From an uncultured bacterium (GTDB lineage: Bacteria; Chloroflexota; UBA5177; JANWHV01): 48,714 nt of DNA. A model generated the notes under the pieces. It was not told the origin of the DNA. It saw only the letters and a program-made list of their open reading frames with translations, and searched no databases. How positions within the stretch are numbered: the first letter of the stretch is position 1; each line of letters starts with the position of its first letter. Below, in pieces: positions 28,703 through 41,435 of the stretch. The DNA is taken from assembly GCA_963827235.1 (NCBI GenBank), contig CAWHAE010000021.1:1-48714 (forward strand), in the 5' to 3' direction. The translations under genes and the position numbers were made by a program.

Positions 28703-31081
28703 CTAGTCCGCGGGCTCCAGAGACGCCACGGCAAGGCTGAATTCGAACGTCGATCCGTGGCCGACGTCGCTCTTCACCGTAACTACGCCGCCCATCGCCT
28801 TGACCAGGTGTTGGCAGATGTAGAGACCGAGCCCGCTGCCGCTGAGTCCTTCTCGCGGCGTGTGGCCGAGTCGCGCGAAGCGGCCGAACAGCCGGCTGAT
28901 CTGGTCGGACGAGATGCCGGGGCCTTCGTCGTGAACCCAGAACCTGGTCACGCCGTCCCTGCCTTCCACACCGACCCCGACCGGACTCGCCTCCGGGCTG
29001 TACTTGATGGCGTTGTCCAGCAGATTCACGAGCACCTGCGCAAGACGCTCGCTGTCCGCGGTGGTCAGCAGCGAGTGGCGGGGCACGGTGACCTCCACGG
29101 CCTGCCCGGGATACTTGGCCCGAATCTCGTCGACCACCTGCCTCACCACGGCACAGGCATCGACGGTCTCTAGGCGCAGCGAGAACGTCGCGTCCTCCAG
29201 GCGCGAAGCCAGCAGGATGTCGCGCACCAAGCGGTCAAGCCGCTGCGCCGATCGCTGCATCTTCCGCACGGAGTTGAGGCGCCGCTCATTGGACAGCTGA
29301 TCCCAGTAGTGCGTCAACGTGTCCGCGAAGCCGATGATGCCGGTGAGCGGTGTGCGCAGCTCGTGCGACACAGTGGCCAGAAACTCTCGCCGAAGAGCAT
29401 CTACTTCTTCCAGATGCCGAGTTCTGCCGCGCTCGATGTCGTAGAGGCGCGCCTTCTCCAGCGCGCTCCCGGCCTGAGTGGCCATCGCACCGGCAAGATC
29501 GACCTCGTCGCTCGCGATGTCGGAGGCGGCCCTGCCGACGTAGTTCACGTACAGGGCCCCTCGCACGCAGCGCACGCCGTCGTGGTCGCACAGCACCGGG
29601 ACGAGAATACGCGATGAGTACTCGAGCTCCGTGCCGGCCGATGGGCTCGGCGAGGACGATTCCGCACCGTCGATGATCACGGGCAGCAGTGTCCGCAGCA
29701 TTTCGCTCTCCGATTCGACCATGTGCTGGGATATCGGCGATGCGCCGTGGTCGTCTTGCTCGGCGATTGGCTGGGGACCGTAACCGTCAGTGAAGTGGGC
29801 AACCGTGTTCCTTGCCGTGTCGTCGTAGAGATAAATGTCGCATGTTCGCGAGCGCAACGCCTTACGCGTCTCGCGCGCCACGACGCGCATCACCTCGTGC
29901 GTGTCAATAGACTCGTTCATGGCCTGGTTGGCCTTCAGGAGCGCCTCGGCCCGTGCGCGTGCTTCCGCCTCGGCCTCCGTGAGGCGTGCATTCTCCAGCG
30001 CGGCACCCACGACCTGGGCAAAGGTGACGAGCACCTCCGCCCGGCTTTCCGGCAGAGGCCGGCCGGAGAGCAGATTGTCGACCGAGATCATGCCTGCGAG
30101 ATTCTCCCCCCGCCGGATGGCTACGACCAGCTGCTCGCGCATGCGGCCGTGCAGGCGACCGCGATAGCGGGGATCGGTCACCGACCAGCGGTCATGGCAG
30201 TAGTAGTAGGGCGCGCCGGCAAGCAAGCGCGCCACGTCGGGGGCAGCGTCCTGCAGGTTTGAGTCGTCCAGCTTCAGCACCGAGCCGCCGCTGTACGCAT
30301 CGCCTTTCTCGCCCGTACCCACCATGATGCGCAGCACCGGCCCGCCGGCATCCACGGCGGCCAGAAAGACGCTGACCCGGTCGAAGCCCAAGGCGAAACG
30401 CACGGAGCGGTATGTGGCGTCGATCACATCTCCCACGCTGCGGCACGCCGCGAGAGAGGAAGTAGCGCCGCGCAGCCATTCCTGCTCCAGGGTCAGACGG
30501 CGCAGATCCATTCCCAGATCGTCGACGCGGCCGTCTCGCTCGGAGCGCAATCGCAATACCTGCAGCTGCAGGGCCAGGATGTCCATGAGCTGCGCCACGA
30601 GGACAGCGTCGCCGGGAGCCTCCCCGGTTCGCGCACTGACATCGACGACCACCGCCCCCACTACCTCCGGCCCGGCCCGAAGCGACAGCCAGAGAGCATG
30701 CTGGATTTGCGATGAAAGCGGCCAGTTGTCGCGTGCCGGGCCGCTCTCCTTCCACATGCTTCCCGAGCCCGACGGGCCCAGCTCCGATCCGTACATCCAC
30801 GATCGCAGGGGTGAGCCGGGTATGAACGACCTGCCCTCGCACGGCGAGTACGCGGCGGCACCATTCACCACGCAGGCTGCCACGTCCAACAACTCACGCT
30901 CGGGCCTCACCAGGAGCAGCACCAACTCGCGAGCACGCAATCGCTCCGCCGCCAGGCGGCAGGCGGTGTCGATGAGCGCACTCTCGGTGGCACAGGCCGT
31001 GAGCGCCCGAGTGCAGGTGCCAAGCCACTGCAGATCGGCGTCGCCCGAGGACTGGATTACGCGCTGCAAGCTGGAAATCAC
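28703..31081 (-). CDS. Multi-GAF sensor histidine kinase
   Basis: Three GAF-like repeats; FLATVSHELRTPLT, NLLDNAIKYS, DEGPGI, GSGLGL. Confidence 0.92.
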   Translation of the reverse strand: MISSLQRVIQSSGDADLQWLGTCTRALTACATESALIDTACRLAAERLRARELVLLLVRPERELLDVAACVVNGAAAYSPCEGRSFIPGSPLRSWMYGSELGPSGSGSMWKESGPARDNWPLSSQIQHALWLSLRAGPEVVGAVVVDVSARTGEAPGDAVLVAQLMDILALQLQVLRLRSERDGRVDDLGMDLRRLTLEQEWLRGATSSLAACRSVGDVIDATYRSVRFALGFDRVSVFLAAVDAGGPVLRIMVGTGEKGDAYSGGSVLKLDDSNLQDAAPDVARLLAGAPYYYCHDRWSVTDPRYRGRLHGRMREQLVVAIRRGENLAGMISVDNLLSGRPLPESRAEVLVTFAQVVGAALENARLTEAEAEARARAEALLKANQAMNESIDTHEVMRVVARETRKALRSRTCDIYLYDDTARNTVAHFTDGYGPQPIAEQDDHGASPISQHMVESESEMLRTLLPVIIDGAESSSPSPSAGTELEYSSRILVPVLCDHDGVRCVRGALYVNYVGRAASDIASDEVDLAGAMATQAGSALEKARLYDIERGRTRHLEEVDALRREFLATVSHELRTPLTGIIGFADTLTHYWDQLSNERRLNSVRKMQRSAQRLDRLVRDILLASRLEDATFSLRLETVDACAVVRQVVDEIRAKYPGQAVEVTVPRHSLLTTADSERLAQVLVNLLDNAIKYSPEASPVGVGVEGRDGVTRFWVHDEGPGISSDQISRLFGRFARLGHTPREGLSGSGLGLYICQHLVKAMGGVVTVKSDVGHGSTFEFSLAVASLEPAD

Positions 31082-31273
31082 CTCGTATGTCTCTCTGCCC
31101 CGTCACAGAGTGAGCACTAGGCAGGTGCCGTCGCGCGCGAGAGCTCGGAAGGTGAATCCAGCCCGCTCTGGAGTGCTATCCAGCGGCCAAGCCGTGAATG
31201 CTGCCCGCCGGACTGCCGTCGCCCACGTTCGCGCCCAACCCATGTACGCTACGGTCCAGTGCCATCATAGCCG

Positions 31274-32084
31274 CTAGTACTCCGCGAGTGTATGCCCTAT
31301 AGGTCCCTGTCCGCCGCCGATCTCCAGAGAGACCTTCAGACACGCGGTGACGTACGCCTTGCTCATGCGCACCGCTTGCACCAGCGAGGCTCCCCAGGCG
31401 AGTCGACAGGCAATGGCCGCCGCGAGCGTGTCCCCCGCACCGAGCACGGCCGTCGTGGCCACGCGCGGTGTGTCCAGCCATTCTCGAATACCGGTCTCCA
31501 AGGCAAGCAGATCGGGGCTCCGGTCGGTACCAATGCGGCCTCCCTTGACGAGCACGGCATGGGCACCCTGTTCCAGCAGCGCCTCGGCAGCCGCCTCCAT
31601 ATCGCGTTCGCCTCTGACCGGCAATCCGGTGAGCACCGAGGCCTCCGCTGCGTTCGGCGTGACGATAATCGCGCGTGGCAGCAGCACGCTCTTGATCGCC
31701 GCCACCACCGCGTCGCTCAAGAATCGGCTTGCCATGTTTGTCGACACATACCGGATCCACGACCAGCGGAGGCAGCGCGCCGGACGCCACTTCCATCTCT
31801 ATGGCATCGATTGCCTCAATGCCCGCGAGGTACCCCGTCTTCACGACTTCCGGCGCCAGATCGTCGAGGACGGCCCGTATTTGCGCGCGAATGATCTCAA
31901 ACGGCATCGCCTTCATCGCACGGATACCCAGCGTATTCTGTGCAGTCACACAGGTCACTGCTGTCGCGCCGTGCACGCGGTGACTGAGGAACGTCTTGAG
32001 ATCGGCCTGCAGACCGGCGCCTCCTCCACTGTCGGAGCCGGCAACTGCCAGGACACAGCGAACCTCAGACCGGCTAAGCGGCAT
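31274..32084 (-). CDS. thiD: Hydroxymethylpyrimidine/phosphomethylpyrimidine kinase, frameshift near 31720
   Basis: AGSDSGGGAGLQADLKT, TAQNT, VVDPV, TPNAAEA, LVKGG, GAGDTLAAAIA. Confidence 0.9.
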
Positions 32085-32263
32085 ACATCCTCCATACTGC
32101 CGGGATCTGCGGCCACGCCGGAGCAGGGCGCTGGACGCCCCGACACCGGCCACGGGATCGCAGGCGTGAAGCGTCGCAGAACGGCAAGAGCGCCGAGCCG
32201 GCGCGAATATGCGCGTATTTGGCCCCTCGGTATACTTCTGGTACAGCTACCAGGAGGCGGCCC

Positions 32264-33190
32264 ATGGCTACGAGTTTCGCGGATTTCGTCAAGGCGCGCA
32301 AGGAACAGGAGAACGGCAGGCACCCGGCAGAGCCGGTGCTCTATGCGCATCCGACTGACTCCACCGTGCAGCGCCTGCTCAGTCGCGTCGGTTTGCAGGG
32401 CAGCGTGGAGGCAATCATCAACGCCTACGTCCGCGTGGCGTTCGGCACGTTCTTGCACGATTCGGTGCAGGTTACGCCCCGGCAATTCCCGGAGATCTAC
32501 GCCCTGCTCACCGAGTGCGCCGACCGCCTGGCCATCCCGGTGCCCAGGTTGCTGATCGGTCCCGGCACCGGCGGCATGGAGCTCAACGCATACACCTTCG
32601 GGACGGACGAGCACTGCTTCATTCACATGACCTCGTTCCTGGCCCTGCAGCTTTCGCCTGAGGAGTTGCGCTTCGTGCTCGGGCACGAGTGCGGGCATAT
32701 CCACAACCAGCATGTCACCTACCTCACCCTGGCGTACGTGCTGCACTACCAACTCTTCAGCAAGTTCTGGCATAATCCCGACGCCTTCAAGTTCCCCATG
32801 CTCGCCACCAAGGTGCCCTTGGCCACCTGGCAGCGCCGGGCAGAGGTCACCGCCGACCGCGCGGGCGCCATCTGCGCGCAGGACACGGAAGTCGGCTGCC
32901 GCGCGCTGATCAAGCTGCGTCTCGGCTTCGCTTCGCTGGCCAAGGACGTAGACGTCGACGCCTACCTTGAGCAGGGAGACGACCTTCGCAAGTCCGGCTT
33001 CTTCGTGCGAGGTCAGGAGCTCACCTACACGCATCCGCTGGTCGTCAAGCGCATCAAGTTGCTGCGCATGTTCGCGCGGTCGGACCTGTTCTACACCTGC
33101 AGCGGGTTGCCGCGTCCCGCCGATGACCTCAGCCTGCTGCAACGGACCGATCTCGAGCGCGAGACGGAGCAGCTGGTGAAGGTATTGTGA
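32264..33190 (+). CDS. M48-family zinc metallopeptidase
   Basis: NAYTFG, ELRFVLGHECGH (HExxH), RRAEVTADRAG, THP..VKRI; AGGAGG RBS. Confidence 0.9.
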   Translation: MATSFADFVKARKEQENGRHPAEPVLYAHPTDSTVQRLLSRVGLQGSVEAIINAYVRVAFGTFLHDSVQVTPRQFPEIYALLTECADRLAIPVPRLLIGPGTGGMELNAYTFGTDEHCFIHMTSFLALQLSPEELRFVLGHECGHIHNQHVTYLTLAYVLHYQLFSKFWHNPDAFKFPMLATKVPLATWQRRAEVTADRAGAICAQDTEVGCRALIKLRLGFASLAKDVDVDAYLEQGDDLRKSGFFVRGQELTYTHPLVVKRIKLLRMFARSDLFYTCSGLPRPADDLSLLQRTDLERETEQLVKVL

Positions 33191-34824
33191 CTACAGTCTT
33201 CTCGCAGCCAACGCCCGAGCTGGCCCTGCGCGGCATTTTGAGCAAGCTGCGCGAGGAAGCAGGAGCGACGTCGGCGACCGACGTGGCCCGCGCGCTCGAC
33301 GCGCTCGATGAGCGGCTTCGTTCCCGCCGCCTGCTGGTTGCCGTGGTGGGCGAGCACAATCGCGGCAAATCCACGCTGGTCAACAGCCTGATCGGCGAGG
33401 CATGGCTGCCCATGGGACAAGGCGCCCCGACGCTGCCGCCCGTGTACGTGTACAGCGGGTCACGAGAACACGTGGAGCTCGTGTATGCCGACGGCAACAG
33501 CGTCGAGTGCACCCGCTCGGATCTGCTCGCGCTCGAGACCGACGACGCCGAGAGCGTCAGCCACGCGCGCGTCGCCATCCCGAGCGACGATCTGCGCGGA
33601 CTCACGCTGGTCGATACGCCCGGTCTGAACGACCCCGACACGGCGCGGCTGGCGCAGACCGTCTATGGGCTGCTGCCGCAGAGCGACCTGGCCCTCCTGG
33701 TACTGGACAGCACGCAGGCCTTCGGCGCCAGCGAGCGAGAGCTTCTCACGCGGCGAATCGCGCAGGCCGGGCTGCATCGGCTCGTGGTCATCCTCAATCA
33801 CGATGACGCTCTCGACGACGAGGATCAACGCGCCGAAGTCCGAGCGCGCGTGCTGCGACTGTTCGCGGAGACTCTTGGCCGGGAACCCGACGTGCTGCCC
33901 TATGCTGCGCGGGTCGCTCTGCGAGCTCGGGAACGCGTCGACGACCGCCTGCTGGCGCGCTCGGGCTATCCAGAGCTCTGCAGGCTCCTCAGCGAGTACG
34001 CGGAAAAGCGCGCCGGCGTGCTCCGCCAGACCGTCGCCCGCAGGGCTGTGGACCTCGCACACGTGCTTCTCGGACTGCTCTCGGCTCCCGTGCCTCCTCC
34101 CGCGCCGGCCGTGGCAGACGACGGCCGCCGCCAGCAGGCTGAGAGCGCCTGCCGGGACGTCGAAGCCATCCGGGACGAGCTCAAGCTGCAGCTCCAGGAC
34201 TTCACGCTTGCATTGCGCGACCGCCTACCGGATGAGACCGCGGAAACGGCAATTGACGATATCCGCCGCTTCCTGCCGTTCTACATCCAACAGCAATTCG
34301 GCGGCTTCCTGCGCGAGCACGACGAGCCGGTGCGGGAACGGGTACAGGAGGTCGTGAAGAAGACGGGGGTTGCGGGATGGCAGACCCGGAGCTTACCGGC
34401 CAGCGCGCCGGCCCCCGGCCTCCATCCCTATGTCGAGCCGGACTTTCTCGAAGACAGCATCCTGCTGACCACCTTCATGACCGTGATCGGGCTTGCCATG
34501 AAGCCGATCGTGGCCGGCGCCATGATGACTATCGGCCCAATCCTGCGCATGCTCACGCGCGGGATGTACGATCAGACTACGAAGGGCGCACTGGTGCAGG
34601 CGGCAATGGCGGCGACGATGGAGGCAGGCCAGGCACTTGAGAGCCAGATCGAGGGCTCATTCGCAGAGCTTACCCGGGGCATCCGCGACGGCGGTCCGGA
34701 GCCCGCACGACCGGTGGCGATCGCGCTCGACGACTCGTCTCGCATCGCGGCGCGCGACCGCATCGCCGCGCTGATCGACGGGCTGGCGGGGCACGCTTCC
34801 GGGCCGGGCGACGGCCGGACATAG
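33187..34824 (+). CDS. Bacterial dynamin-like GTPase 1
   Basis: VVGEHNRGKSTLVNSLIG, LVDTPGLND, VILNHDD; C-terminal hydrophobic hairpin; the GTG start overlaps the M48 stop. Confidence 0.85.
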   Translation: MTTVFSQPTPELALRGILSKLREEAGATSATDVARALDALDERLRSRRLLVAVVGEHNRGKSTLVNSLIGEAWLPMGQGAPTLPPVYVYSGSREHVELVYADGNSVECTRSDLLALETDDAESVSHARVAIPSDDLRGLTLVDTPGLNDPDTARLAQTVYGLLPQSDLALLVLDSTQAFGASERELLTRRIAQAGLHRLVVILNHDDALDDEDQRAEVRARVLRLFAETLGREPDVLPYAARVALRARERVDDRLLARSGYPELCRLLSEYAEKRAGVLRQTVARRAVDLAHVLLGLLSAPVPPPAPAVADDGRRQQAESACRDVEAIRDELKLQLQDFTLALRDRLPDETAETAIDDIRRFLPFYIQQQFGGFLREHDEPVRERVQEVVKKTGVAGWQTRSLPASAPAPGLHPYVEPDFLEDSILLTTFMTVIGLAMKPIVAGAMMTIGPILRMLTRGMYDQTTKGALVQAAMAATMEAGQALESQIEGSFAELTRGIRDGGPEPARPVAIALDDSSRIAARDRIAALIDGLAGHASGPGDGRT

Positions 34825-34935
34825 AGTATCCCCTTGTGGTGGGTGGGACATGGCGGCGGAGCAGAGCTGCCGGAGCAGGACGAGTGTGAACCTACATCGA
34901 ATGACGGCGCAGACTACGCCGATGAGAGGACGAGG

Positions 34936-36900
34936 ATGACCGGACAGGTTGAGGGCTACCGGGACTTTGCGGCAGTACGAAGCGAAGTCGTCTCGGAGCT
35001 GCGAGAACTAGCCACGTTCAACCGTGGCCTGGGCATGGAGGACGGTGCCCTCCAGCTGCAGGAGCTCGCCGACCGCGTGCAGGCCGGCGTCTTCCGCGTG
35101 CTGGTCCTGGGCGAATTCAAGCGCGGCAAATCCACGCTGATCAACGCCCTGCTCGGCGCCAATCTACTGCCGGCCAACGTCACGCCGACTACCGCGCTGC
35201 TCACCCTGATCAAGTACGGGCCGGAGGTCACCATCGATCTCATCCCGTTCCGCGGGGAACCCGAGCGGGTCAGCGTGGAGCAGCTCGCGCAGACGCTCAG
35301 CCTGTCGACCGATGAAGAGGAGAATCACCGGCGCCAGGCTACCTACAAGATCGTCGAGGTGCATTATCCCTCGCCGCTCTGCGAGAACAACGTGGAGATC
35401 GTCGACTCGCCCGGCCTGAACGAATCAGCCATTCGCACGGAGATCACGAGCGGCTACGTTCGCCAGTCGGACGCGGCAATATTCGTGCTGTCGGCTACGA
35501 ACTTCGCCAGCCTGACGGAGCTCGAATATCTCAACACGCACATCCTGGGCAAGGGCCTGACCCACATCTTCTTCGCCATCAACCAGTACGACCGCGTGCT
35601 CGACGACGCCGACGATCCGGCGCGCGAGGCGCGCGACCTGACCGCCCTGGCCGAGCAACGCCTAGGCCCGCTGACTCGCGTCAACGGGCGTGACTACGGG
35701 CGCGAGCGCATCTACTTCGTCAGCGCCAAGCCCGCGCTCCGCGCCCGTCTTGCCGCCGACAGCCACGGCCTGGAGCAATCGCGCTTGCCCGCGCTGGAAG
35801 GGTCACTCGAGCGCTTTCTGGCTCGCGAGCGCGGGCGGGTGGCGCTGGAACGTCCCCTGGCCCAGGCCGCGCAGGCCGTCGGTGATGCTCGCGACGCCCT
35901 GGCATTCCGCCGCTCGACCATGGAGATCGACCTTGCCACGCTCGAGAACCGGGTCAAGGAGGTGCAGCCCAAGTTCGATCAGCTGCAGGAGCATCGCCGG
36001 CGAATCCTCCGCACCATAGAGTCGTCGGAGCAGCTCGTGCAGAAGTCGGTCGAGCTGAGCTTCAGGCAGCGCGTGGCCACCATGGAAGACGGCATGCTGG
36101 AAGCGGCAATGGCCCTCAAAGTCTCGCCGCAGTGGAATCCCCAGCGGCTCCGCAAAGAGATGGCGGAGGGCATCAATAAGTACATCGAGCGCGAGCTGCA
36201 GACCTGGTCGGATCAGACCGGCCACGACATCGAGGAGCGGCTCACACAGCTCACGCAGGACATAGGCGAGGACGCCGCCAGCATCGATGCTACGCTCAAG
36301 CGCATACGAATCCAGGTGGCAGGCGGCGTGCTGCCGGAAATCGACGAGGTCGCGGGAGATTCGCGACGCGTGCTGGAGACCATCCTGGCCTACGGCGGCG
36401 GCATGCTGGGCGACTTCGGCGTGGTCTTGAAAGGCGGCAGCGGCTGGCTGCAGAGTGCGTTGCGCGTCATTGCCCTGCAGATCGCGGCCACCGTGCTCCT
36501 TGCCGCCATCGGCTGGGCTACCAGCCCGCTCTTCGTGGTCGGCACCGTGGCCAGCGCCGTGACCATCGGCATCATCAATCGCCGCAACACCATGGAACGC
36601 AACATGAAAGAGAAGATTGCCGAGACGGCCCGCGGCGAGCTGCACAAGCTGCCGGCCAAGGCACTCCCCAACATGTTGCAGGAGGTGCACAAGTCGTTCG
36701 AGGCCTTCTCGACCTCGATTGCCCGCGGCATCGACGTGATGATCGCCAACGTGCGCGACAGCATCGACGCGGCAATCGCCGATCGGCGCCGCCTGGAGGG
36801 TGAGCAGGCCCCGGAGCTGGAGCGTCTGTCCGGTATCGAGCGCGGGCTCGATGAGCTCGAACAGCGCATGGCCGCCAGCCGCGCGCGCTTCGGCGACTGA
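34936..36900 (+). CDS. Bacterial dynamin-like GTPase 2
   Basis: VLGEFKRGKSTLINALLG, LPANVTPTTA, IVDSPGLNE, FVSAK; helical stalk and a hydrophobic hairpin. Confidence 0.92.
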   Translation: MTGQVEGYRDFAAVRSEVVSELRELATFNRGLGMEDGALQLQELADRVQAGVFRVLVLGEFKRGKSTLINALLGANLLPANVTPTTALLTLIKYGPEVTIDLIPFRGEPERVSVEQLAQTLSLSTDEEENHRRQATYKIVEVHYPSPLCENNVEIVDSPGLNESAIRTEITSGYVRQSDAAIFVLSATNFASLTELEYLNTHILGKGLTHIFFAINQYDRVLDDADDPAREARDLTALAEQRLGPLTRVNGRDYGRERIYFVSAKPALRARLAADSHGLEQSRLPALEGSLERFLARERGRVALERPLAQAAQAVGDARDALAFRRSTMEIDLATLENRVKEVQPKFDQLQEHRRRILRTIESSEQLVQKSVELSFRQRVATMEDGMLEAAMALKVSPQWNPQRLRKEMAEGINKYIERELQTWSDQTGHDIEERLTQLTQDIGEDAASIDATLKRIRIQVAGGVLPEIDEVAGDSRRVLETILAYGGGMLGDFGVVLKGGSGWLQSALRVIALQIAATVLLAAIGWATSPLFVVGTVASAVTIGIINRRNTMERNMKEKIAETARGELHKLPAKALPNMLQEVHKSFEAFSTSIARGIDVMIANVRDSIDAAIADRRRLEGEQAPELERLSGIERGLDELEQRMAASRARFGD

Positions 36901-36976: not shown

Positions 36977-38209
36977 CTATCCGCGGGACCGCACGTCAGA
37001 GTCCCCGGCGCGGCATCGTGCTGCGCCACGGGACGGCGGAGCGACCCGCCATAGCAACACAAGCGCCGCGAGCATGGCAATCGCGGCAAAGTGCAGGCGG
37101 ATGTACACCACGAGGGTCGGTGCCACGTACAGCGCAACCGTCACGGGCACGACCCAGCGGTCGAGCTCCTCCCGGCCGCTGGGTCGCTGCACAAACGAGC
37201 AAAGCACCGCGATGGGCACGAGCAGAAGGACCAGATCGTCGGTGTGCGCGTAGGGCGCCGCCAGGAGATCCACCAGGACCACTGCCGCCCAGCCGCACGC
37301 GAACTGAGCGCTCGACGGCTGCCAGGCACCGCGCCAGGAGCGCGCCAGTGCGACAACGAGCAGGCCGCTCAGCAGATAGGCCGCGCCACCGGCGACGGCA
37401 CTGCCGGGCCATGCCTGCAGGAACATGGCGTGGAGACCGGGGATATCGCGCACCCAGAGACTCAAGGAGCCCGCGCCACTATCGGTGCTGCGCAGAGTTC
37501 TGAAGAACCCGAGGAACGTGTCCGTGCCCAACACGGGTAGCGAGATCAGCATCGCCGTGCAGCCAAGCGCAGTAAACGCCGCTGCCGCTCTCCACCGCCG
37601 CTTATAGAGCAGAAGGGGCAGGGTGAGAAAGGCGAGCTGAGGCTTGACCAGCGCACCGGCGCAGAGGGAGCCGCCGCCGAGCACATCCTTGTCCCGTGTG
37701 AAACACCAGATGGCCGCCGCGTAGCTCAGCACGACAGGCGCAGTGGAGTTGCTGGAGGTCGGAATCAACAGCATCGTGGGCGTGGACAGAGCGATCAGTG
37801 CCCCGCCCTGGGCCACCGCGCCGGCGCCGAGCCGTATGCGCAGCGCGTCGCACATGATGTAGCCGGCCGCAAGCAGCATGAGCAGCGACGCCGCGCACCA
37901 GATGACCCTGGACGGCATGTAGCCGAGCGGCAGGGCAAGGCGAGCCAGCAGCAGAAAGGAGGGAGGATTGAGGAATTGGCCGACACCGAAATAGGGATCG
38001 CCCCCGTGCAGCGACCGCTCGGCCGCCTGGTAGTACACGAGCCAGTCCGAATCGTGGAAGCCATGGTTGACGCGATTCCAGGTGCGCAGAATCGACAGGT
38101 CGATCAGGGCCGACGACGCGACGAGGGCAGCGCCCAGCATGCCCAACCCGGCAAGCCGGACAGGCCGCGCGGCATCGGCACTTCGTGGTGATGCGGAGTC
38201 TGTGACCAT
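36977..38209 (-). CDS. GT87/DUF2029 membrane glycosyltransferase (GT-C fold)
   Basis: DWLVYYQAA...GGDPY...FLNPP, LVKPQLA, PYAHTDDLVLL; polytopic. Confidence 0.85.
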   Translation of the reverse strand: MVTDSASPRSADAARPVRLAGLGMLGAALVASSALIDLSILRTWNRVNHGFHDSDWLVYYQAAERSLHGGDPYFGVGQFLNPPSFLLLARLALPLGYMPSRVIWCAASLLMLLAAGYIMCDALRIRLGAGAVAQGGALIALSTPTMLLIPTSSNSTAPVVLSYAAAIWCFTRDKDVLGGGSLCAGALVKPQLAFLTLPLLLYKRRWRAAAAFTALGCTAMLISLPVLGTDTFLGFFRTLRSTDSGAGSLSLWVRDIPGLHAMFLQAWPGSAVAGGAAYLLSGLLVVALARSWRGAWQPSSAQFACGWAAVVLVDLLAAPYAHTDDLVLLLVPIAVLCSFVQRPSGREELDRWVVPVTVALYVAPTLVVYIRLHFAAIAMLAALVLLWRVAPPSRGAARCRAGDSDVRSRG

Positions 38210-38518
38210 CCCGGCTCTCAGTCTGAAGGGCCTCCGGTCGCCGCGCAAGTCCCCAAAGAGCACATCGATAGATGCTGAACAGGCCCCTGCCTTCCTCTGT
38301 GCGCCGATAGACCTCGACACGCTGGTACTCCGTGGCGACGAGCACGAATTCCTGCAGGGACGGGCAGCGCCGATAATCGTCCCACTTGCGGCACCGATGG
38401 TACTGGTCGACAGGGGCACGGTATCGCTGTATCTTTTGGTTGCACCGTGGCGTCGATGCGTACCGGCGGGCCGGTGCCCGGCAACCGCGGTCCGCGTTCT
38501 ATCGGCGGGAGAAGTGCG

Positions 38519-39307
38519 ATGAAGGGCATAGTGCTGGCCGGCGGACGAGCAACGCGACTCCGCCCGCTCACGAAGATCACGTCCAAGCAGCTGCTCCCCG
38601 TGTACGACAGGCCGATGATCTACTACCCCATCGACACCCTGCAGCGCATGGGTATTCGCGACATACTGATCATCATCGCGCCCGAGTACTCGGGGCACTT
38701 TCTCAACTTGCTCGGCTCGGGCAAGGACTTCGGCCTGAGATTCACCTACGAGATCCAGGAGGAGCCGCGCGGCTTGGCCGACGCGTTCTTGATCGGCGAG
38801 CAGTTCATCGCCGGCGACGACGTGACGCTGATCCTGGGAGACAACATCTTCGATGAGGACTTCTCTTCCATCGTGGACGGCTTCCAGTCCGGTGCGACTA
38901 TTTTCGGCAAGGAGGTCCCGGACCCACAGCGCTACGGCGTCGTGGAGCTCGATCGGGAAGACAACGTGCTGTCCATCGCCGAGAAGCCTCAGCAGCCCAA
39001 GAGCAATGTGGCGATGGTCGGCCTCTACGTTTGCGACAACCGGGCCAGCGACTTCGCTCGGCGCGTGCGCCCATCCGTACGCGGTGAGCTGGAGATTGCC
39101 GACGTTATGAGCCAGTACCGCGATCTGGGACAGCTGCGCCTGCAACGCGTAGACGGCGTCTGGGAAGATGCAGGAACCTTTGAGAGCCTCTTGCGCATAA
39201 GCAACTACATGGCCGAGAAGCGCCGCAGTGCGAACGGAAATGACGATGGACGTGTCACAGCTCTTGCCGGAAGCGCGCGACCGCTTTCAGGTGCAGTCGT
39301 ACGCTAA
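38519..39307 (+). CDS. rfbA: Glucose-1-phosphate thymidylyltransferase
   Basis: MKGIVLAGGRATRLRPLT, SKQLLPVYD, LILGDN, RGELEI, WEDAGT. Confidence 0.93.
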   Translation: MKGIVLAGGRATRLRPLTKITSKQLLPVYDRPMIYYPIDTLQRMGIRDILIIIAPEYSGHFLNLLGSGKDFGLRFTYEIQEEPRGLADAFLIGEQFIAGDDVTLILGDNIFDEDFSSIVDGFQSGATIFGKEVPDPQRYGVVELDREDNVLSIAEKPQQPKSNVAMVGLYVCDNRASDFARRVRPSVRGELEIADVMSQYRDLGQLRLQRVDGVWEDAGTFESLLRISNYMAEKRRSANGNDDGRVTALAGSARPLSGAVVR

Positions 39308-40815: not shown

Positions 40816-40856
40816 TGGACAACGGCCATGGAATACGGGAGAATACTCAAGAGTAC
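40816..40856 (+). promoter_or_regulatory. Toxin-antitoxin promoter/operator
   Basis: TGGACA-17-GAGAAT; GAATAC/GAATAC/GAGTAC repeats with a 10-bp period (40831, 40841, 40851); palindrome TACTC-AA-GAGTA (40844-40855). Confidence 0.6.
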
Positions 40857-40869
40857 AGGAGGACTCGCT

Positions 40870-41163
40870 ATGTCGACCGTCGCGACAACCATCCGCATTC
40901 CCGATCATCTGCAGGAACGCTACGACAAGCTTGCCAAGGCAACCGGAAGGACACGGAACTACCTGATGGCCGAGGCACTGGAGCTCTTCATCACGCGCGA
41001 AGAGTGGCAACTGAGCGAGACGCTGGCCACCCTCGCCAAACTGGAGGCAGGAGCACTGCCGCTGATACCGGCCGAGGAGCTGATGGCTCGCTATCTCGCG
41101 GAGGGCAAAGTGACGCGGGAAGGGCTGGATGCGGCTGCCAGGCACTACGGCGATGAGGCCTAA
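40870..41163 (+). CDS. CopG/ribbon-helix-helix antitoxin
   Basis: TTIRIPDHLQERYDKLAKATGRTRNYLMAEAL; AGGAGG RBS; TAATG overlap with the toxin. Confidence 0.88.
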   Translation: MSTVATTIRIPDHLQERYDKLAKATGRTRNYLMAEALELFITREEWQLSETLATLAKLEAGALPLIPAEELMARYLAEGKVTREGLDAAARHYGDEA

Positions 41164-41435
41164 TGCGTCTCGCCTACAGTGCCGACGCGGCCAGAGACCT
41201 TGACCAGATCTGGGTCTTCCTGGCCCCGCGAAGCACGGGCGAGGCGCAGCATGTGCTTGAAGCCATTCAGGCCGCCGCACAACGATTGCAGCGCTTCCCC
41301 GAGCTGGGCCGTCCGGGACAAGATGTTCGCACGCGCGAGCTCGTACTACCCGATTATCCGTATCTCCTCGTCTATAGGGTCGAGGGTGTGACGTTGATCA
41401 TCCTGCGCGTCTACCACACTGCGCGGGACCGCTAG
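41163..41435 (+). CDS. RelE/ParE family type II toxin
   Basis: YSADAARDLDQI, FPELGRPG, TRELV, YLLVYRV, ILRVYHTARD. Confidence 0.92.
   Translation: MRLAYSADAARDLDQIWVFLAPRSTGEAQHVLEAIQAAAQRLQRFPELGRPGQDVRTRELVLPDYPYLLVYRVEGVTLIILRVYHTARDR

Follow-up and report, generated by a model that had tools for sequence, protein, structure and literature searches.

An M48 metallopeptidase gene linked to dynamin-like GTPase genes in several bacterial phyla and its possible role in dynamin control

Three adjacent genes on one strand of a contig from an uncultured bacterium (GTDB lineage Bacteria; Chloroflexota; UBA5177; JANWHV01) encode an M48-family zinc metallopeptidase (hereafter the M48 protein) and two dynamin-like proteins (DLPs), DLP1 and DLP2. 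The contig, CAWHAE010000021.1 of GenBank assembly GCA_963827235.1, was analyzed over its whole length of 48,714 nt, referred to here as the window, and belongs to a genome of 8.0 Mb in 21 contigs with a GC content of ~65 %. Comparative genomics revealed that the M48-DLP arrangement occurs far beyond chance and outlasts the loss of either enzyme activity. The reading that we favor, with a probability of roughly 40 %, makes the M48 protein a dedicated regulator that is bound to DLP1 and that, in its catalytic forms, would gate dynamin assembly by proteolysis. Tandem bacterial dynamins with a dedicated M48 partner are what is new here; the gene set is real, and its mechanism is what we infer, including that the proteins bind each other physically, that the dynamins are the substrate and which way the switch works.

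Structures of bacterial DLPs have been available since 2006, and their roles in the cell and the switching of their assembly are largely open. To our knowledge, no dedicated regulator of bacterial DLPs has been described. A protease (or pseudo-protease) gene locked to the first dynamin gene across phyla offers a concrete, testable handle on dynamin control.

Linkage of the M48 and dynamin genes

A scan at one genome per species gave 558 confirmed relatives of the M48 protein, and the best 80 loci were examined; 71 of these had at least 1500 nt of DNA downstream of the M48 gene, and the other nine were left out of the count. A dynamin-like gene lay downstream on the same strand in 70 of the 71 loci, starting no more than 1500 nt from the M48 end in 60 of them and 1504-2140 nt from it in 10, and a single locus (L079) had no downstream DLP gene. 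The gap in seven of the ten more distant loci was occupied by an open reading frame (ORF) of 548-585 aa that aligned over its whole length with DLP1 and had a decayed G domain; the remaining three showed an ORF without a Pfam match (L016), a DLP with a long N-terminal extension (L054) and a gap (L033).

The reverse search, with the best 80 of 545 DLP1 relatives, left 77 loci with sufficient upstream DNA. An M48 gene of the same family was found directly upstream of the DLP1 relative in 69 of the 77, with a gap of at most 352 nt, and two further relatives had such a gene ~0.7-1 kb upstream. The six DLP1 relatives without an M48 gene came from two Paenibacillus, one Pirellulaceae, one Enterobacterales-labelled and two Myxococcota-type contigs. 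The junction is often tight: of 61 loci, 23 allowed a DLP1 start that overlaps the M48 stop by 4 nt and 5 one that overlaps it by 1 nt, counted by a nearest-start rule that favors overlapping calls. The original prediction, made from the letters of the window, would have failed if the M48 gene were not tied to these dynamins in other genomes; the forward (70/71) and reverse (69/77) counts show that it is, and that the gene set is a conserved module.

The source genome itself holds five Dynamin_N genes in 8 Mb and a single M48 gene of this family, which scored 436 bits compared with 53.5 and 51.7 bits for the two other M48 genes, and this single copy stands beside the DLP pair described here. 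Two further DLP genes in tandem (739 and 670 aa; G000:C12:336180-340401, equivalent to L093:5180-9401, minus strand) follow a glycosyltransferase gene and lie directly upstream of ParA/ParB, and the remaining single DLP gene is found among molybdopterin genes; none of these other three DLP genes has a protease neighbor. Altogether, on the evidence of gene neighborhoods, the M48-DLP linkage is among the strongest obtainable from comparative genomics.

The linked loci were assigned by record title to Chloroflexota, Myxococcota, Bacillota and Cyanobacteriota. Chloroflexota, Chloroflexia and Ktedonobacterales accounted for 13 loci of the forward set, many Myxococcota lineages were represented, including Bradymonadales, and the four Bacillota loci came from Lachnospiraceae, Ruminiclostridium, Acutalibacteraceae and Anaerotignum. 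Lujinxingia vulgaris TMQ2 (L059) is an example of a carrier that has been cultured. Cyanobacteriota contributed one linked contig (L099), and a Microcoleus M48 protein used as query gave three cyanobacterial loci, two of which were contig fragments. The M48 family occurred once per genome in all four other genomes of the source genus (4/4). Of 16 genomes belonging to the same class it was present in 8, and of 40 that made up the remainder of the phylum sample in none. Among 81 genomes of the Myxococcota order that holds L053, 41 had it as a single copy, genome completeness not being reported for this set. In phage and plasmid collections only distant M48 relatives were found, on two Thermus plasmids (33.6 % identity) and in one unannotated phage-labelled record (25.6 %).

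Variants of the module

In the 7 kb fetched for each locus, 46 of the 70 linked loci had a single DLP cluster after the M48 gene. As most Myxococcota loci show one DLP after M48, the conserved core is, judging by gene content, M48 plus DLP1, and a DLP2 of BDLP type (for bacterial dynamin-like protein) is an addition found in Chloroflexota, Ktedonobacterales and Bacillota.

Among the 22 systems that were aligned, 7 (from Ktedonobacterales/Chloroflexota and Bacillota) have a pseudo-GTPase as DLP1, in which the P-loop Lys is replaced (GSGRS etc.) and DTPG is lost. These proteins (L015:7909-9645, L026:7888-9639, L011:7927-9684, L012:7864-9591, L046:7901-9658, L057:7639-9309 and L072:7838-9484) kept their position beside M48, their length and the hydrophobic paddle, and one or two DLPs with an intact G domain follow them.

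Loss of the catalytic residues was also seen on the protease side. The catalytic tetrad was checked in near-complete M48 homologues from 149 of 151 loci, which gave 134 unique sequences. H-E-H-E was intact in 120 of them and at least one residue was replaced in 14, of which 13 were without a His or the Glu of HExxH (with motifs such as RECGR, SALGR and HACGH) and one had a change of E to D only. All 14 (loci L097, L098, L101, L102, L104, L107, L108, L116, L125, L129, L144, L158, L162 and L169) lie directly upstream of DLP1. A quick midpoint-rooted FastTree tree placed ten of them in one clade and four as scattered singletons.

That a dead protease or a dead GTPase is retained without a change in gene arrangement speaks for M48 and DLP1 working as partners and against mere co-regulation. 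Additionally, because catalytically dead versions of M48 stay linked, these comparisons indicate that the conserved core is the partnership and not cleavage alone. The pseudo-GTPase and pseudo-protease variants can thus be regarded as natural experiments on which activities are essential.

One predicted protein, P0127 (906 aa), which was found by exhaustive profile search, fuses M48 (residues 4-295), Dynamin_N (351-512) and a helical domain in one chain. Other apparent M48-DLP fusions, produced by naive longest-ORF calling, were rejected, as the genes were in different frames or had stop codons between them.

Additional genes were observed around the core in some lineages. Some Myxococcota loci (L023:6336-10072, L025:5160-8873 and L055:7448-10054) encode a protein of 868-989 aa after M48-DLP1, and those that were scanned (L023 and L055) have an N-terminal TPR array fused to Dynamin_N. 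An ORF of 237-255 aa without a Pfam match also follows M48-DLP1 in L023 and L025.

Upstream of M48, 10 of 19 loci examined carried a same-strand gene of one of four kinds, encoding a Ser/Thr kinase in four loci (two with LRR_5), an APH-fold kinase in four (Polyangiaceae-type), an FHA protein in one and a STAND-TPR-LuxR protein in one. These genes are located at L011:5327-6799, L018:5362-6849, L057:3397-5445, L086:3891-6344, L053:5923-6879, L069:5935-6906, L071:5942-6889, L080:5967-6935, L033:5657-6976 and L015:4284-6863, and a singleton of 559 aa (P0173) fuses a Pkinase domain to an M48 of this family. The presence of such genes suggests phospho-regulation of the module in some lineages. In the window, no kinase, FHA or STAND-type gene lies directly upstream of M48.

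Proteins encoded in the window

The three genes were confirmed as intact and located on the plus strand between 32264 and 36900, as the original prediction had described them. The M48 gene (32264..33190, plus strand, 308 aa) begins with ATG, and direct reading of the sequence places a Shine-Dalgarno-like AGGAGG (32252..32257, plus strand) 6 nt 5' of this start. The protein matched Pfam PF01435 (Peptidase_M48) with an E value of 3.5e-23 and 82.8 bits, the cut-off being 20.3 bits, and the match covered profile positions 2-183 of 186. Family M48 is marked by HExxH, by a Glu further downstream (ExxxD) and by an HP motif towards the C terminus. The full set is present here and was invariant in 20 relatives (alignment A1). 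It consists of HECGH (32684..32698, plus strand), with the zinc-binding and catalytic residues H141, E142 and H145; EVTAD (32843..32857, plus strand), with E194, T196 and D198; and HPLVVKR (33032..33052, plus strand), with H257, P258 and R263, which aligns with the C-terminal HP motif of Ste24. We take E194 of EVTAD to be the third zinc ligand. The N-terminal family motif YAHPTD (32342..32359, plus strand) contributes the residues Y27 and D32, which were invariant across the same number of relatives. HECGH and EVTAD had already been noticed in the original prediction, along with the GTGA junction to the first dynamin gene, and all three were found in their places.

An AF2 model of the M48 protein, built from 20 sequences, reached a pLDDT of 86.7 and a pTM of 0.87. 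The top Foldseek match of the model was ZMPSTE24/Ste24 (4aw6; E 3.1e-4, probability 1.00, TMq 0.49), and the catalytic domain of HtpX (3cqb; TMt 0.69) came next. A profile of the family searched against solved structures also matched the HtpX domain 3cqb (8.6e-12, in the HExxH region) and Ste24 (2.3e-5). By these sequence and model comparisons the protein is a member of family M48 with a Ste24/HtpX-like fold. No transmembrane helix was predicted, as the maximum KD19 was 1.12 and every segment stayed below the level of the DLP paddles. In the NCBIfam models only partial HtpX matches were found, with a best equivalog score of 43.3 bits compared with a cut-off of 412. The identification of the protein as HtpX itself was thus ruled out by equivalog scores of ~43 bits against cut-offs of >400 and by the absent transmembrane helices, and the missing helices also argue against membership in the OMA1 group (M48C). 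The M48 protein of the window is predicted to be soluble and is apparently an active peptidase.

The M48 protein and its relatives form a family of their own, with a length of ~300 aa, invariant HECGH, W..RR.E.T.DR and HP....R and an N-terminal Y-A-x-x-x-D, and an exhaustive profile search gave 1086 clusters (at 50 % identity) with E <= 1e-30. In more distant members the M48 part is joined to zinc ribbons, TerB, DnaJ or TPR. One distant relative (L175; Thermus thermophilus plasmid NZ_AP025611.1, 30536-31459; 33.6 % identity over 71 %) is preceded by an HNH endonuclease gene and has a Swt1-family HEPN gene nearby, and it has no DLP beside it. Due to these neighbors and fusions, it is concluded that the wider M48 family has other partners than DLPs.

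DLP1 (33187..34824, plus strand, 545 aa) starts with a GTG that overlaps the TGA stop of M48 in the sequence GTGA (33187..33190, plus strand). It matched Dynamin_N at E 2e-17 (64.2 bits, cut-off 27) and has intact G1 and G3 motifs, as required of a dynamin superfamily member; these are the P-loop GEHNRGKS (33349..33372, plus strand), conserved in alignment A3, and DTPG (33613..33624, plus strand), recognized by motif and in the same alignment. Its best matches in the Protein Data Bank were IniA (8e-11, residues 25-358) and the Campylobacter jejuni DLP (1.2e-9). A hydrophobic hairpin, the paddle, was located at residues 425-453 (34459..34545, plus strand) with KD19 values up to 1.87.

DLP2 (34936..36900, plus strand, 654 aa) likely starts at the ATG at 34936 and not at the TTG at 34834, because its orthologues align from residue 1 of the 654-aa form. 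It scored above the cut-offs of both Dynamin_N (PF00350; 90.1 bits, E 2.1e-25) and PF21808 (90.3 bits, E 1.9e-25), and it matched the Nostoc BDLP (2j68) over its full length with E 1.3e-56, residues 75-678 aligning with 58-680. Mitofusins, the C. jejuni DLPs and IniA gave weaker matches. The P-loop GEFKRGKS (35110..35133, plus strand) and the G3 motif DSPG (35404..35415, plus strand) were identified by motif, and the paddle was found at residues 508-547 (36457..36576, plus strand) with KD19 values up to 2.04. Every BDLP-type feature that was tested is therefore present in DLP2, comprising the domains, the P-loop, DxxG, full-length similarity and the paddle. The two hairpins had been predicted at the C termini of the dynamins; both exist, and they lie in the C-terminal third and not at the extreme end.

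Among close relatives the identity was 74-81 % for M48, 54-62 % for DLP1 and 83-90 % for DLP2. Scans for sigma-70 promoters and intrinsic terminators between 31900 and 37200 returned 0 sites of either kind, which is uninformative for this host phylum.

Genomic surroundings of the operon

The neighbors of the three genes in the window encode a GyrA-like protein, a response-regulator diguanylate cyclase (RR-GGDEF), LexA, a GAF histidine kinase, ThiD, GT87, dTDP-sugar enzymes and a ParDE pair. The order GyrA-like, RR-GGDEF, LexA, thiD, M48, DLP1, DLP2 is identical in relatives with a 74 % identical M48 protein, and the operon is therefore regarded as vertically inherited at a stable position.

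Opposite-strand thiD and GT87 genes had been proposed as the boundaries of the module. The strands and the GT87 gene (36977-39145, minus strand; E 7e-15), which lies 3' of DLP2, were correctly assigned, while the thiD-like gene proved to be split across two reading frames on the minus strand, with its N-half in 31176-32153 and its C-half in 31274-31747. One frame matched positions 1-106 of the Phos_pyr_kin profile and the other positions 97-245, with an overlap of ~50 nt, and the two halves share a single frame in the relative L007. The split represents either a frameshift (pseudogene) or an assembly error.

A triple-GAF histidine kinase of 792 aa is encoded between LexA and thiD (28703-31081, minus strand). 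The relatives L008 and L009 have no such kinase there and LexA abuts thiD, so that the gene looks like an insertion in the source genome. Downstream, a toxin-antitoxin pair of a ParD-like ribbon-helix-helix (RHH) protein and ParE (40828-41435, plus strand) is located between the genes of an RmlB-like dehydratase and RmlD in the sugar-nucleotide cluster.

Proposed mechanism and alternative explanations

We propose that the three genes would form one operon for a membrane-remodelling machine plus its own regulator. DLP1 and DLP2 would constitute a heterotypic GTPase pair, each held in the cytoplasmic membrane by its hydrophobic hairpin, and the M48 protein would be a soluble cytoplasmic zinc metallopeptidase produced in step with DLP1. 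It would bind DLP1 and set the assembly state of the dynamin pair, and it may reach the membrane via the DLP since it has no membrane anchor of its own. Where M48 is catalytically competent, it could cut a dynamin subunit or a lattice component, and this cleavage would lead to irreversible assembly, disassembly or activation, that is, to a protease-gated switch.

A complex prediction for DLP1 and M48 (alignments A2 and A1), made without control pairs, gave scores of 0.24 and 0.22 relative to a mark of 0.32 and bears on their binding in neither direction. Several points weigh against the proposal. Binding of M48 to a DLP and cleavage of a DLP are both steps that we infer from sequence, and no cleavage site or conserved extension was identified on DLP1 or DLP2. 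The linkage counts draw on 80 relatives each, the best of 558 for M48 and of 545 for DLP1; the two sets share contigs and are not independent, and metagenome-assembled genomes supply most of the sequences. The dead-protease clade reveals that proteolysis is dispensable in some lineages, and dynamin cleavage therefore cannot be the universal mechanism. The fusion protein P0127 is a singleton on one 14.4-kb metagenome contig in which the DLP's own methionine is kept at the junction, so that a sequencing error or a lost stop codon may have produced it. Longer, fused M48 relatives were also sought with a word index, a weak form of evidence, and none appeared at E <= 1e-20. Additionally, the kinase and FHA genes upstream of M48 in several lineages could mean that control is exerted via phosphorylation instead.

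The same dead-protease clade bears on a role in membrane quality control, which we consider doubtful. According to this explanation, the DLP pair would detect or attach to membrane that is damaged or highly curved and bring the soluble M48 protein there, whose substrates would be third-party proteins such as misfolded or pore-forming membrane proteins; the arrangement would resemble HtpX beside FtsH, with targeting by a dynamin. An M48 protein without the transmembrane helices of HtpX, Ste24 and OMA1 (maximum KD19 of 1.12) would need a partner to target it. In both fold and sequence the protein matches Ste24 and the catalytic domain of HtpX, and its catalytic residues are kept in 120 of the 134 unique homologues. 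The strong linkage to membrane-anchored DLPs and a role of DynA in membrane surveillance in Bacillus subtilis, as far as the available part of the literature describes it, are also consistent with quality control. However, ten M48 proteins of one clade have lost their catalytic residues and keep the linkage, which is hard to explain if the sole job of the protein is to degrade others, and no conserved substrate candidate was found in the loci neighborhoods examined. Since a pseudo-protease can bind or hold a partner and cannot degrade third parties, the clade fits the gating of dynamin assembly better than third-party quality control.

A function in anti-phage defence or abortive infection, in which an Eleos/Leo-like dynamin pair would detect phage-induced membrane events and M48 would be an effector or activator, appears quite unlikely. 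Both DLPs matched the LeoA/LeoBC models of PADLOC (8.9e-18 and 1.4e-24), and two-gene dynamin systems (bioRxiv 10.1101/2022.05.11.491447) and DynA (PMC8844932) protect against phages according to the accessible portions of these sources. The patchy distribution above the genus level (8/16 genomes of the same class and 0/40 in the rest of the phylum sample) and the fast evolution of DLP1 compared with DLP2 leave the idea a small chance. In some lineages the module adjoins genes of the STAND, kinase or FHA kind, and a distant M48 relative is found on Thermus plasmids beside HNH and Swt1-HEPN genes.

The matches of the DLPs to the Leo models were weak, however, and the M48 protein had no PADLOC match. 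The LeoA/HP0731 model of NCBIfam (NF041922) was missed by DLP2 with 30.7 bits against 325, and DLP1 did not match it. Among 114 flanking ORFs of 16 loci, PADLOC returned generic Ser/Thr-kinase models (7), DLPs (3), mad2 (2) and mad3, PDC-M21C and TPR (1 each), and these ORFs contained no restriction, CRISPR, CBASS or similar hallmarks. In addition, the upstream order GyrA-like, RR-GGDEF, LexA, thiD is kept in relatives, the module is nearly absent from phage and plasmid collections, and its single-copy presence in 4/4 genus genomes and 41/81 genomes of a Myxococcota order contrasts with the ~1 % reported for the published two-gene dynamin system. The defence role that the original prediction had put forward thus received no backing from the PADLOC analysis or from the genes flanking the module.

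Mere co-regulation, with M48 and the dynamins as independent envelope-stress proteins that share a promoter and have no interplay, is compatible with the frequent co-transcription of stress-response genes and with an M48-DLP interaction that is itself a prediction, and it is rendered highly improbable by the fixed M48-then-DLP1 order with overlapping or tight junctions under at least four phylum-level labels, by a linkage specific to one M48 family and one DLP1 lineage, by the dead-enzyme versions of either partner that stay in place and by the existence of one fusion protein.

Taken to its fullest extent, which we offer more tentatively than its core, the regulator proposal would make the M48 protein a dedicated, co-inherited M48-fold dynamin regulator that binds the first dynamin and gates assembly of the complex, by proteolysis in most lineages and by binding alone where the active site has decayed. 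It would represent the first known protease regulator of a prokaryotic dynamin and a convergent equivalent of OMA1-OPA1 that is carried by Myxococcota, Chloroflexota, Bacillota and Cyanobacteriota.

Comparison with known systems

A full-text search of the literature, with paywalled papers and supplementary gene-context tables lying outside its coverage, returned no description of an M48 peptidase in a bacterial dynamin operon. In the portions of the sources that were available, HtpX was named only as a candidate protease for DgcE (PMC6510439), an unrelated M48 gene was placed beside a Type I restriction system (PMC12255303) and leader peptidase was the only peptidase mentioned (PMC4159319).

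The catalytic core of the M48 protein is common to HtpX, as seen in the match to 3cqb (E 8.6e-12) and the partial NCBIfam matches. Unlike HtpX, the protein has no transmembrane helices, carries its own signature (HECGH, YAHPxD), has a dedicated linkage to DLPs and scored 43.3 bits where 412 would be needed.

Among the dynamins, DynA of Bacillus consists of two fused DLP modules, whereas two separate genes are present here, and the DynA equivalog NF052648 was missed (42.1 bits, cut-off 1600). The mycobacterial IniA/IniC proteins are likewise paired DLPs in an operon, and IniA is the best solved relative of DLP1 (E 8e-11); the similarity is distant, however, and the module has a protease gene and no iniB-like gene. 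The C. jejuni DLP1/DLP2 pair (5owv) also comprises two different tandem DLPs that probably form a hetero-oligomer, with E values of 2e-11 and 7.6e-11 for DLP2 and 1.2e-9 for DLP1, but the similarity is low and limited to the G domain, and no protease partner is mentioned in the accessible part of PMC6104087.

The Nostoc punctiforme BDLP (2j68, 2j69, 2w6d) is matched by DLP2 over its full length, with Dynamin_N, PF21808 and the hydrophobic paddle in common. The Nostoc gene is one of four BDLP genes in an operon (bioRxiv 10.1101/2025.05.27.656310), and KGK, HSR1 and DnaK are given as neighbors of cyanobacterial DLPs (PMC5827413). The parts of these two sources that were available mention no protease, whereas here an M48 gene heads the pair.

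Eleos/LeoABC shares with the module the tandem dynamin-like GTPases and the PADLOC Leo models that both DLPs match. It differs in that the NCBIfam cut-off was missed (30.7 against 325 bits), an extra M48 protein without a PADLOC model match is present, no defence-island context was seen and the prevalence of the module in the sampled clades is much higher. The two-gene dynamin defence system is found in ~1 % of genomes and is co-localized with known defence systems in ~60 % of cases, as stated in the available part of bioRxiv 10.1101/2022.05.11.491447; the flanks in the window hold housekeeping and envelope-sugar genes instead.

The mitochondrial OMA1-OPA1 system, in which the M48 protease OMA1 cuts the dynamin-related GTPase OPA1 in response to stress, is similar to the module in tying a zinc peptidase of M48 fold to a dynamin-superfamily GTPase anchored in the membrane, and the idea of an irreversible switch is also shared (PMC11885689, in the part available). 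It differs in that OMA1 is an integral inner-membrane protein and the M48 protein described here has no transmembrane helix, in that the bacterial partners are BDLP/mitofusin-like and not OPA1-like, and in that dynamin cleavage is a proposal here. Because Opa1 co-evolved with Oma1 within Metazoa or Holozoa, as reported in the accessible portion of the same source (PMC11885689), any likeness would be convergent and a functional analogy only. If the regulator proposal is true, the coupling of an M48 peptidase to a dynamin-superfamily GTPase would have arisen independently in bacteria and in mitochondria.

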